Shown here: positions 16,476 to 17,621 of the stretch, one piece after another
Numbering within the stretch: the first letter of the stretch is position 1
Layout: every line of letters begins with the position of its first letter
NCBI RefSeq assembly: GCF_048403405.1
Contig: NZ_CP183129.1
From: Escherichia coli
GTDB taxonomy: Bacteria; Pseudomonadota; Gammaproteobacteria; Enterobacterales; Enterobacteriaceae
Direction: 5' to 3' (one strand)
Length of the DNA: 64,000 nt
Made by a program: the position numbers and the translations under genes
The notes under the pieces: model-generated
Databases searched by the model: none
Told to the model about the DNA's origin: nothing
The model's input: only the letters and a program-made list of their open reading frames with translations

Positions 16476-16649
16476 TTAGTGGTTATTCGCTGCCAGATCG
16501 GCTTCGCTTAGCTGGGTGGCTGCGAGCACCAGGTCACGATCAATGCCCTGTTCCAGCATGCGCAAAGCAATTTTAATGGCTTGTTCATGCATGCCTTCCT
16601 GCCAGCCAATTTGGTGTCCTTCCTGCCGTAGCCGTTCAGCAATAGTCAT
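16476..16649 (-). CDS. ypaA: small protein YpaA (57 aa), paralogous to the RpnB C-terminal tail
   Basis: Minus-strand ATG at 16647-16649 preceded by AAAAGGAGAGATTA; translation [35 protein letters not shown]...; below the 60-aa ORF-track cutoff. Confidence 0.6.
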   Translation of the reverse strand: MTIAERLRQEGHQIGWQEGMHEQAIKIALRMLEQGIDRDLVLAATQLSEADLAANNH

Positions 16650-16661
16650 TAATCTCTCCTT

Positions 16662-17621
16662 TTAATGACCGTTCGGAATATCAGCATCAGTGAGTTGGGT
16701 TGTCGCCAGCACAATCTCACGTTCAAAGCCCTGTTCCAGCATGCGCAAGGCAATTTTAATGGCTTGTTCATGCATACCTTCTACTTTGCCTTTCTGCAAC
16801 CCCTCCAATTTCCCCTCCTGCCAACCTTCAATTTTACCTTCCTGCCAGCCAATTTGATGTCCTTCCTGCCGCAGCCGTTCAGCAATAGTCATTAATCTCT
16901 CCTTTTGTAGTGGTGAACGTTCGGCAATCTCCTCAATAAAACGGGTGAAACGGGAGGTATCGCCGCATTGCAGCAGGTAATTAAACAGCGTTTGTAGCTG
17001 GCTGTCATTAGTGAAGCCTCTAACCAAAAGCGTGGTGATCCTGTCGACCATACCGATTAAATCGCGGTCGCGAATATGCTTTTGAATCAGTTCCAGCAGA
17101 GCTATACGCCGATGTTGCATGATCTCATCGTCAGGTACGATGGTGATATCCACCAACGGAAAAGCTTCGGTGTACAACTGCCGGGCAAGTTGCGGATCGT
17201 CAAACTCATCCAGCCAGTTGAGTGAGTACGGGTAGGGCGAGGTTTCGCCATGATAAAACAGCAATGGCACCACCAGCGGAACTCTGTCATAGCCTTTATC
17301 CAGGTGACGCTGCATGGCGGCAGTGGCATAGCGCATTAGCCGAAAAGCCATATTCTTTTCTGCAGAGCTTTGATGTTCAATCACGCAGTAGATATAGCCT
17401 TCACCGTCGCTGGTTTCCACAGACCACAAAACATCCGAGTAGTAAGCGCGTAAACTTTTTTCAATAAAGCTGGTGGGTTCCAGGCGTAAAGTTTGCAGGT
17501 TGCAAAGCTTGCGCAGCGGCTCTGGTAGATGTATTTCCAGAAAATCCCGAGCGGTTTCGGGTGTGAACATAAAGGTTTTAAACACCGCATCATGCGGGGA
17601 GGAGGTTGTTGATTCGGTCAT
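16662..17621 (-). CDS. rpnB: recombination-promoting nuclease RpnB (transposase_31 / PD-(D/E)XK family)
   Basis: 319-aa ORF; C-terminal tail contains GWQEGK-type repeats and an internal SD-ATG identical to that of ypaA. Confidence 0.8.

Follow-up and report, generated by a model that had tools for sequence, protein, structure and literature searches.

The stretch of Escherichia coli DNA analysed here (the window; 64,000 nucleotides) carries on its minus strand the E. coli rpnE-ypaA locus, which probably represents the published Rpn_LS family of toxins with intragenic antitoxins, in a form in which the antitoxin cassette has been duplicated in tandem. The rpnE-ypaA arrangement was published in 2019 and 2023, and the finding is correct, not new. 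The locus comprises the following features:

17619-17621, minus strand: primary ATG of rpnE, preceded by a weak Shine-Dalgarno sequence (best anti-SD duplex -3.8 kcal/mol)
16662-17621, minus strand: rpnE (yfaD), encoding RpnE_L, 319 amino acids plus a TAA stop (ORF list, RefSeq, NCBIfam)
16995-17600, minus strand: PD-(D/E)XK nuclease / Transposase_31 (YhgA-like) domain, residues 8-209 (Pfam PF04754, E 6.2e-88)
16899-16904, minus strand: internal Shine-Dalgarno sequence AAGGAG, read in RpnE as Lys-Glu (RpnA positions K240 and E241)
16662-16892, minus strand: rpnE_S, predicted intragenic antitoxin of 76 amino acids, starting at the in-frame ATG 16890-16892
16776-16835, minus strand: five extra 12-nt repeats, each encoding 4 amino acids of the GxxxG type, 20 amino acids in total (K-12 alignment, codon parse)
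16664-16906, minus strand: copy 1 of the tandem duplication, 243 nt, Shine-Dalgarno sequence through the rpnE stop codon
16476-16663, minus strand: copy 2 of the tandem duplication, 188 nt, with a Shine-Dalgarno sequence (16656-16661), an ATG (16647-16649) and the ypaA ORF through its stop
16476-16649, minus strand: ypaA (= rpnE_Ss), a stand-alone RpnS paralogue of 57 amino acids (ORF list)
16442-16468, no strand assigned: GC-rich hairpin in the gap where ypaA and yfaU converge (terminator-like scan)

The host gene is rpnE (yfaD, b2244). The original prediction had named it rpnB, but rpnB (yfcI) is excluded by the RefSeq annotation, by the synteny with glpC and yfaU, and by the NCBIfam equivalog model NF007418, which scores RpnE at 707 bits (cutoff 583). 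The RpnA model NF007361 reached 416, under its cutoff of 583, and TIGR01784 gave 172.8 bits (cutoff 52.1). RefSeq names rpnE in strain TUM14771, where the region is 100% identical to the window, as well as in K-12 (b2244), and the gene order glpC / rpnE / ypaA / yfaU is shared with both. Within the window a single Rpn N-domain is present, and an alignment of RpnA with the window and K-12 proteins revealed that RpnA residues D11, D63, E82, Q84, R94 and D165 are all conserved in the window RpnE; D11, D63, E82 and Q84, whose roles as catalytic or essential residues in RpnA were described by Kingston et al. 2017 (PMC5350276), are invariant in K-12 RpnE as well. A search of PADLOC-DB 2.0, which contains no Rpn model, matched no relevant defence model and gave only a weak 'putative invertase' match.

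The original prediction started from a sequence occurring twice on the minus strand. Both copies exist, but they are not identical: the 46-mer AAAAGGAGAGATTAATGACTATTGCTGAACGGCTGCGGCAGGAAGG is exact at 16861-16906 and recurs on the same strand at 16618-16663 with one mismatch (G16872 versus A16629; 45 of 46 positions). The repeat also extends beyond the length first described, and consists of a 70-nt block with 97% identity (16837-16906 versus 16594-16663) and a 102-nt block with 83% identity (16680-16781 versus 16497-16598), between which the upstream copy alone contains the 60-nt segment 16776-16835. A repeat search placed the cassette copies 243 nt apart. Their likeness starts 14 nt 5' of each ATG, and upstream of that point the copy-versus-copy comparison found no similarity. 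Downstream, the first 57 coding nucleotides differ by three synonymous and no non-synonymous changes, while the last 108 nt contain 25 differences. Copy 2 starts within the TAA stop of rpnE. The two copies constitute a head-to-tail tandem duplication from Shine-Dalgarno sequence to stop codon. Chance similarity or an assembly artefact, to which we attach next to no probability, is refuted as the origin of the repeat: no match to the 46-mer was found in 100 shuffles, none being expected by chance, and among 5,426 independent complete genomes of E. coli, at least 2,307 (at least 43%) contain the two-copy junction.

Read from the in-frame ATG at 16890-16892, the conceptual product is, as predicted, 76 aa long and equals the C-terminal end of the 319-aa protein, and the strong Shine-Dalgarno sequence ascribed to this start was likewise recovered. 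AAGGAG with a 6-nt spacer precedes the ATG of both rpnE_S and ypaA, with a predicted anti-SD duplex of -8.7 kcal/mol at each, versus -3.8 kcal/mol at the primary ATG. The K-E-x-L-M motif at the internal start is invariant between RpnA and RpnE. A simple scan of 16300-17850, including the interior of rpnE, found no sigma-70 consensus promoter; transcription start sites detected by dRNA-seq within all rpn genes are cited by Zhong et al. 2023 (PNAS; PMC10400941). Internal initiation has been mapped in all rpn genes by Meydan et al. 2019 (10.1101/520783), who also reported that RpnE-C resembles YpaA, and for K-12 both rpnE_S and ypaA are supported by SPA-tagged products and Onc112/Ribo-RET peaks (PMC10400941; 10.1101/520783). 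The window and K-12 sequences agree around both starts: at the internal ATG the identity covers at least 56 nt of upstream sequence and the first 17 nt from the ATG on, and at the ypaA ATG it covers the 14-nt Shine-Dalgarno region before it and the first 17 nt from there. Because the start regions are identical, the K-12 initiation data should transfer to the window.

K-12 has the same locus, with the internal SD-ATG and a stand-alone ypaA right after the rpnE stop, and judged by sequence the difference between the two is only allelic. Compared to K-12, the window rpnE is 60 nt longer owing to five extra 4-aa repeats (RpnE of 319 versus 299 amino acids; RpnE_S of 76 versus 56), whereas its ypaA is 12 nt shorter and has one 4-aa repeat fewer (57 versus 61 amino acids). 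Moreover, the substitutions L107Q and P155L are private to K-12 RpnE and absent from the window; at positions 107 and 155, RpnA and 17 other RpnE alleles all agree.

The five extra repeats at 16776-16835 are absent from both K-12 RpnE and the window ypaA, and Tandem Repeats Finder (TRF) reported a period of 24 nt in three copies at 16776-16847. In the alignment-based AF2 model of RpnE_S (pLDDT 70), one long helix spanning residues 3-53 is followed by a short helix, and the 4-aa repeats lengthen helix 1. The top PDB fold match of this model was 7TH0, the crystal structure of RpnA-S (probability 0.99, target-normalised TM 0.72, E 0.16). A phmmer search of the PDB with full-length RpnE missed 7TH0, which came up with short queries only. 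Helix repeats of the GxxxG or deca-GX3 type, as in FliH/YscL and Yae1-Lto1, place a glycine at every fourth residue of a long helix, vary in number and are implicated in helix-helix dimerisation. The repeat-bearing RpnE_S gave sub-threshold matches to Yae1_N and, at E values of about 1e-6 to 1e-7, to models of FliH; the repeat-free YpaA matched neither. A relationship with these proteins was rejected, as the matches lie far under the curated cutoffs and reflect GxxxG repeat composition; the likeness is one of composition and motif, and homology is not supported.

The separate 57-aa ypaA ORF (16476-16649) was correctly predicted to lie directly downstream of rpnE and to start with the second cassette copy. 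YpaA is identical to RpnE_S at 46 of 56 aligned residues (E 4e-28), including the complete N-terminal 19 amino acids, and in helices 2-3 the proteins differ at 10 of 37 aligned residues. Neither YpaA nor the RpnE C-terminus (RpnE_S) matched Pfam DUF4351 (PF14261), the label of stand-alone RpnS genes, and the homology of YpaA to Rpn C-termini is therefore based on its alignment to positions 244-308 of the RpnE profile NF007418 (E 9e-29) and its match to TIGR01784. Against the PDB, residues 1-55 of YpaA matched 7TH0 RpnA-S with E 1.4e-4. Foldseek with a single-sequence YpaA model gave no significant match and did not recover 7TH0. The top PDB matches of YpaA to PPR and designed-repeat proteins were rejected, as their scores are summed over repeats and contain no individually significant stretch. 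In annotations, ypaA is a pseudogene in K-12, and in most genomes PGAP labels it 'incomplete; missing N-terminus'. The hairpin at 16442-16468, which likely acts as a bidirectional terminator ending the rpnE, rpnE_S and ypaA transcripts, recurs with at most four mismatches in 17 of the 18 genomes sampled, and in 15 of these the hairpin sequence is exactly that of the window.

Of the 5,426 E. coli genomes, 5,420 matched the rpnE-ypaA region; among 40 matches taken at even spacing, 17 were single-copy. A sample of 18 genomes was read closely, consisting of 13 two-copy and five single-copy genomes with 31 cassette copies, all of which retain AAGGAG and the ATG. The rpnE ORF is intact in all 18 and its repeats vary in frame only, while the ypaA ORF, Shine-Dalgarno sequence and ATG are intact in each of the 13 two-copy genomes. 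Locus lengths vary among strains by multiples of 12 nt: across the 18 genomes, RpnE_S has 0 to 10 extra repeats and YpaA 0 to 4, always in frame, and the numbers in the two proteins are unequal in all 13 two-copy genomes (five versus none in the window). Selection against equal numbers was considered and dropped, since with random pairing 0.6 equal pairs would be expected against the 0 of 13 seen (P(0) = 0.50), which makes the comparison uninformative. In all five single-copy genomes sampled, the RpnE N-domain is fused to a YpaA-type tail. Four of these tails end in ...AANNH and that of O157:H7 TR01 ends differently; two are identical at the protein level to the YpaA of two-copy strains (L015 to L004, and L012 to L010).

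The Rpn biology invoked in the original prediction, in which Rpn nucleases are toxic, associated with phage defence and restrained by small proteins from their own 3' ends, agrees with Zhong et al. 2023 (PMC10400941), who established that the toxic RpnL nucleases are counteracted by RpnS antitoxins translated from internal starts. Toxicity and neutralisation were demonstrated for RpnA, RpnB, RpnC and RpnP2, and phage defence for the plasmid-encoded RpnP2 only. In these paralogues the toxicity of RpnL, its SOS induction and its cleavage of DNA are all blocked by RpnS, the two proteins assemble as L2S2, and the RpnA_S dimer is formed via helix 1; for RpnC, a difference of one repeat abolished neutralisation (PMC10400941). 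RpnA_LS, RpnB_LS, RpnC_LS and RpnP2_LS share with RpnE the PF04754 domain, the same catalytic residues, a conserved internal-start motif of 15 amino acids and a C-terminal domain that is helical and varies in its 4-aa repeats in helix 1. The evidence for toxicity, neutralisation, phage defence and an L2S2 complex comes from those paralogues, to which the window rpnE is likened by sequence. Unlike rpnE-ypaA, RpnA has no downstream stand-alone copy. The RpnS cassette of another rpn paralogue, located outside the window, is likewise duplicated directly downstream of its parent gene, and the authors' phylogeny indicates that this arose independently. The same study named ypaA rpnE_Ss, described it as a second RpnE_S copy and already pointed to its loss through deletion or fusion (Zhong et al. 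2023, PMC10400941).

The anatomy of the locus and the family to which it belongs are established, and in K-12 both small proteins are expressed; the toxicity of RpnE_L and its neutralisation by RpnE_S may be expected by analogy with the paralogues. RpnE_L (319 aa) would be a PD-(D/E)XK DNA endonuclease, and the strong Shine-Dalgarno sequence in its Lys-Glu codons together with the ATG at 16890-16892 would allow the last 76 amino acids to be translated separately and probably more efficiently. The resulting RpnE_S is predicted to be a helical domain, the long first helix of which bears the GxxxG-type 4-aa repeats, and it may dimerise via this helix with the identical segment of RpnE_L to form an L2S2 complex in which the nuclease is switched off, as in RpnA, RpnB and RpnC; pairing specificity would be set by repeat number. 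The head-to-tail duplicate ypaA adjoins rpnE so closely that no room is left for a separate promoter, and it is therefore presumably co-transcribed and translated from the SD-ATG that it carries itself. YpaA looks more like an alternative or displaced C-terminal module, and recombination between the copies would delete the internal tail and join the nuclease domain to a tail of the YpaA type, as in the single-copy strains. Because YpaA has five fewer repeats and diverged helices 2-3, and in view of the RpnC repeat-mismatch result, it is most likely not the cognate antitoxin of RpnE_L in this strain, a prediction by analogy with a single RpnC experiment. The earlier wording 'antitoxin-like paralogue' is consequently the right one, and 'second antitoxin' would overreach, given the repeat mismatch and the RpnC experiment.

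Other readings of ypaA are less probable. If it were a functionless relic, either a fragment of the duplication or a displaced old C-terminus expressed through its inherited SD-ATG, this could account for the pseudogene label in K-12, the PGAP calls, and the many genomes without a separate ypaA (the junction being found in 2,307 of 5,426, and 17 of 40 matches being single-copy). This is possible but doubtful, as 12-nt indel turnover never breaks the frame, ORF, Shine-Dalgarno sequence and ATG are preserved in 13 of 13 two-copy genomes, the protein is detected in K-12 (PMC10400941), and the YpaA sequence recurs as a functional RpnE tail in single-copy strains. That recurrence, in which a YpaA-type tail is the sole RpnE C-terminal domain and functional in cis, would also suit a genuine second antitoxin acting in trans on RpnE_L, as a back-up or dosage booster, and so would the identity to RpnE_S at 46 of 56 residues with 19 shared N-terminal amino acids, the equally strong SD-ATG and the expression in K-12 (PMC10400941). 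Nevertheless, such a role appears improbable in view of the 10 differences in 37 residues of helices 2-3 and the loss of RpnC neutralisation upon a single-repeat difference (PMC10400941); the unequal repeat numbers in 13 of 13 genomes point the same way, but are uninformative by themselves (P = 0.50 with random pairing).

RpnE itself might be a decayed, catalytically inert Rpn paralogue, in which case the locus would work neither as a toxin-antitoxin nor as a defence module, whatever the strain. K-12 RpnE, designated 'inactive' in its EcoGene/RefSeq name, upon overexpression displayed no toxicity, SOS induction or stimulation of recombination in every assay (Kingston et al. 2017, PMC5350276), and within the family phage defence was demonstrated for plasmid-borne RpnP2 only (PMC10400941). 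We nonetheless consider general inertness unlikely, since every residue essential in RpnA is conserved, and the region is matched in 5,420 of 5,426 genomes, with an intact rpnE ORF and in-frame-only repeat variation in 18 of 18. The K-12 inactivity may moreover not transfer to the window, because the construct used by Kingston et al. co-expressed RpnE_S, in a ypaA+ host, and because K-12 alone has L107Q and P155L.

A further, rather speculative and on balance unlikely reading is that the tandem pair, instead of being an antitoxin with a spare, functions as a cassette-exchange device with directional module swapping, in which the mismatched YpaA could be an anti-antitoxin. The near-identical 5' segment (Shine-Dalgarno sequence, 19 codons and 12-nt repeats) would promote unequal recombination of the internal with the downstream copy, which would alter repeat number and swap the entire C-terminal specificity module of the RpnE toxin/antitoxin, so that strains would flip between the two-copy and the fused single-copy state. 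YpaA could heterodimerise with RpnE_S and thereby modulate the level of free RpnE_S. If true, directional module swapping and a regulatory role of the mismatched YpaA would be new.

Both lessons of the locus, that a bacterial gene can conceal a second functional gene in frame with itself and that a toxin can come with its own antitoxin, have been published for the rpn family and for this locus. The window allele, without the K-12 substitutions, could help to ask whether RpnE_L is an active nuclease outside K-12, and what a repeat-mismatched stand-alone RpnS does, as specialist follow-up rather than as a new discovery.

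The duplicated small-protein start in the window belongs, with near certainty, to the rpnE-ypaA locus. The original prediction had named the gene rpnB, which is incorrect, since RpnB was defined as YfcI and RpnE as YfaD by Kingston et al. 2017 (PMC5350276), and the window encodes only one Rpn N-domain. The region matches E. coli strain TUM14771 at 100% identity and is syntenic with K-12, comprising glpABC, rpnE (yfaD, b2244), ypaA (b4543), and yfaU-yfaV-rhmD. The RpnE protein contains a PF04754 Transposase_31/YhgA-like domain (residues 8-209, E 6e-88), passes NF007418, the NCBIfam equivalog model used by PGAP for rpnE (707 bits versus a cutoff of 583), and scores below the cutoff of the NCBIfam RpnA equivalog model. 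The identity rpnB was ruled out by the NF007418 match and by the glpABC/yfaU synteny matching K-12 b2244; the remainder of the original description does not depend on the name. Elsewhere in the window, the antisense sRNA MicF was detected at full length (63738-63831, minus strand, Rfam RF00033, 116.8 bits), presumably adjoining ompC as expected, which is consistent with the window corresponding, in reverse orientation, to about 2.31-2.37 Mb of K-12. The REP-derived nucleoid-associated ncRNA naRNA4 (CssrE) was found at 60001-60077 (plus strand, Rfam RF02564, 73.4 bits).

The features of the locus are as follows.

16662-17621, minus strand: rpnE, 319-aa ORF encoding full-length RpnE_L
16890-16892, minus strand: internal rpnE start, in-frame ATG, 76-aa product RpnE_S
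16476-16649, minus strand: ypaA (rpnE_Ss), downstream ORF of 57 aa

On the minus strand, CCACTACAAAAGGAGAGATTAATGACTATTGCTGAACGG lies inside the 319-aa ORF and GGTCATTAAAAGGAGAGATTAATGACTATTGCTGAACGG at its end. The 46-nt start sequence had been reported to occur twice; two minus-strand copies are indeed present, with no matches across 100 dinucleotide-preserving shuffles, but only the copy at 16861-16906 is exact, the one at 16618-16663 carrying one mismatch (G16872 versus A16629). The full repeat also exceeds the reported length, consisting of 70 nt at 97% identity and 102 nt at 83%, split by 60 nt exclusive to the upstream copy (16776-16835). ORF analysis bore out the internal ATG and its product, and ypaA is a separate ORF with its own AAGGAG and ATG. 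The AAGGAG motif is located 6 nt ahead of both small-protein ATGs, where the predicted anti-SD duplex amounts to -8.7 kcal/mol, versus -3.8 at the annotated rpnE start. RpnE_S and YpaA are identical over residues 1-19 and at 46 of 56 aligned residues (E 4e-28).

Similarity between the copies starts at the SD, 14 nt upstream of each ATG, with none detected further upstream, and extends through both stop codons, the second copy beginning within the rpnE TAA. On sequence grounds, the cassette is a head-to-tail tandem duplication from SD to stop without spacer; therefore, there is no intergenic room for a ypaA promoter, and cotranscription with rpnE or rpnE_S would be required. Downstream of ypaA lies a GC-rich hairpin (16442-16468) that it has in common with the convergent yfaU and that was recovered in 17 of 18 genomes. 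Over their first 57 coding nt, the copies differ at 3 sites, all synonymous; over the last 108 nt they differ at 25 sites, in codons of which 6 are synonymous and 11 non-synonymous. Such mosaic divergence fits a 5' part that still undergoes gene conversion or unequal exchange, or one that is strongly constrained. The entire unit is flanked by a 13-nt inverted repeat with 92% complementarity (GATATCAAAGGCC / GGCCTTTGACATC, 16434-16446 and 17672-17684, 1,225 nt apart), which may be due to chance or may be a trace of rpn insertion between glpC and yfaU.

Annotation of ypaA varies among records (window 16476-16661; loci L001, L004-L010, and L016-L019 compared). It is a pseudogene in K-12, and PGAP usually calls a 186-234-nt fragment, 'incomplete; missing N-terminus', beginning directly after the rpnE stop; newer records use the name 'Rpn/YhgA-type helix-turn-helix domain-containing protein', and strain G8 has a normal 61-aa CDS (WP_047644619.1). 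The ypaA ORF has its own SD-ATG, and the K-12 protein has been detected (PMC10400941).

Both starts are conserved. Between the window and K-12, the internal ATG is identical for at least 56 nt upstream and the ypaA ATG across the 14-nt upstream SD region, in both cases together with the first 17 nt from the ATG. AAGGAG and ATG are invariant among 31 cassette copies from 18 E. coli genomes. The sole polymorphism of the 17-nt SD-to-ATG stretch is A/G at position -2 (ATTAATG versus ATTGATG; window 16893 / 16650), in 5 of the 31 copies. The internal SD is encoded by Lys-Glu codons of a 15-residue motif that is invariant in RpnA as well.

RpnE_S measures 76 aa in the window and 56 aa in K-12 because of a 60-nt insertion (five 4-aa units), and YpaA 57 versus 61 aa because of a 12-nt deletion (one unit fewer). 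Residues 11-39 of RpnE_S (16776-16862) have Gly at every fourth position from G11 to G39 and thus form a GxxxG-type (GX3) array; TRF reported the rpnE repeats as period 24 x 3. Helix-dimerisation repeats of the GxxxG/deca-GX3 kind are a known feature of FliH/YscL and Yae1-Lto1. With repeat-bearing RpnE_S, four FliH models (E 1e-7 to 4e-4) and Pfam Yae1_N were matched below threshold, and repeat-free YpaA matched none of them in the same profile searches, which looks like a motif-level parallel rather than homology. AlphaFold2 predicted for RpnE_S an unbroken helix spanning residues 3-53 and, after it, a short helix (mean pLDDT 70; only 53-59 in the repeat segment). The best PDB match of this model in Foldseek was the RpnA_S structure 7TH0 (probability 0.99, TM 0.72 target-normalised, but E 0.16), and YpaA matched the 7TH0 sequence at E 1.4e-4. 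RpnA_S is a three-helix bundle that dimerises via its long first helix (PMC10400941), and the predicted model is in line with the published interpretation of the repeats as an extension of helix 1.

The region was matched in 5,420 of 5,426 complete E. coli genomes, with lengths (bp matched to the 721-nt query) varying in multiples of 12 nt: 478, 502, 526, 673, 709, 721, 733, 745, 757, 781, and 805 bp. A 60-nt probe of the copy-1/copy-2 junction had at least 80% coverage in 2,307 of the 5,426 genomes, a lower bound on the two-copy state. With 16 further loci fetched, the allele sample comprised 18 genomes, 13 two-copy (including the window and K-12) and 5 single-copy. Extra repeats in RpnE_S/YpaA of the two-copy genomes were 5/0 (window), 0/1 (K-12), 5/0, 5/1, 5/2, 3/1, 6/2, 8/4, 8/2, 0/1, 1/4, 8/4, and 10/4. 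The counts are unequal in all 13, which is not evidence of selection, since random pairing yields no equal pair at P = 0.50. All five single-copy genomes have a YpaA-type tail joined to the RpnE N-domain, ending in ...EADLAANNH in four. Two of these tails equal the YpaA protein of two-copy strains, rare substitutions included (L015 = L004, L012 = L010), which directly supports the recurrent fusion and deletion events mentioned by Zhong et al. (PMC10400941). The fifth, from O157:H7 TR01, ends in ...TEADLAPLSLQ, and the hairpin 3' of rpnE was not found there, suggesting a further rearrangement or indel in the O157:H7 lineage.

The weak point is whether RpnE is a toxin, which has to be weighed against its RefSeq product name 'inactive' in K-12 and against Kingston et al. 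2017 (PMC5350276), in whose three assays K-12 RpnE was inactive throughout. RpnE_S was co-expressed in that study because the construct held the internal start, a confound noted for all such constructs by Zhong et al. (PMC10400941). Moreover, L107Q and P155L occur in K-12 alone among the 18 rpnE alleles, at positions where RpnA and all other RpnE alleles share the same residue; these substitutions could explain the inactivity, and the label 'inactive' may not hold for other strains, that of the window among them. Window RpnE has the consensus residues at 107 and 155 and all RpnA catalytic residues (D11, D63, E82, and Q84); given these residues and the confounded K-12 result, RpnE_L of the window is probably an active nuclease.

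The concept of an Rpn toxin with a 3'-end small-protein antitoxin and a phage link is borne out by Zhong et al. 2023 (PMC10400941), who showed production of all five RpnS proteins, an L2S2 complex of RpnA_L and RpnA_S, and protection against T-even phages by plasmid-encoded RpnP2_LS. Ribo-RET peaks at in-frame internal starts of all five rpn genes, and the close resemblance of the rpnE internal product to that of the independent ypaA gene, were reported by Meydan et al. 2019 (bioRxiv 10.1101/520783), and Zhong et al. described ypaA as a second copy of RpnE_S, with ribosome profiling of 'rpnE-ypaA/rpnE_Ss' and SPA-tagged YpaA (PMC10400941). The original prediction is therefore real and, apart from the gene name, rightly interpreted; for this locus it is already known.

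We consider the following mechanism quite probable. RpnE_L would be translated weakly from 17621 and RpnE_S strongly from 16892, a shorter internal transcript probably being a further source. The GxxxG-repeat helix of RpnE_S would pair with the identical helix of RpnE_L, keeping the nuclease inactive until a phage-linked or physiological trigger causes release and frees it. YpaA would be co-expressed with both. In the RpnC system, neutralisation is lost when RpnC_S or RpnC_LS gains a single repeat that its partner lacks (PMC10400941). YpaA has five fewer repeats than RpnE_S and differs from it at 10 of 37 aligned positions in helices 2-3; because of the repeat mismatch, by analogy with RpnC, it would not be expected to neutralise RpnE_L of the window, and we lean slightly towards YpaA being non-cognate.

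For rpnE-ypaA, all parts of the original prediction have already been published: an SD-ATG inside the gene, RpnS proteins as antitoxins, ypaA as a free-standing duplicate, and a connection with phage defence. The allele-specific repeat numbers of the window are one case of a hypervariability described before, in which the number of 4-aa repeats in RpnS helix 1 differs among strains (PMC10400941). What the present analysis adds to this knowledge is small, namely the substitutions private to K-12 and the exact limits of the duplication. The most suitable view of YpaA is that of a C-terminal module, alternative or displaced, which can be re-fused to the nuclease by recombination.
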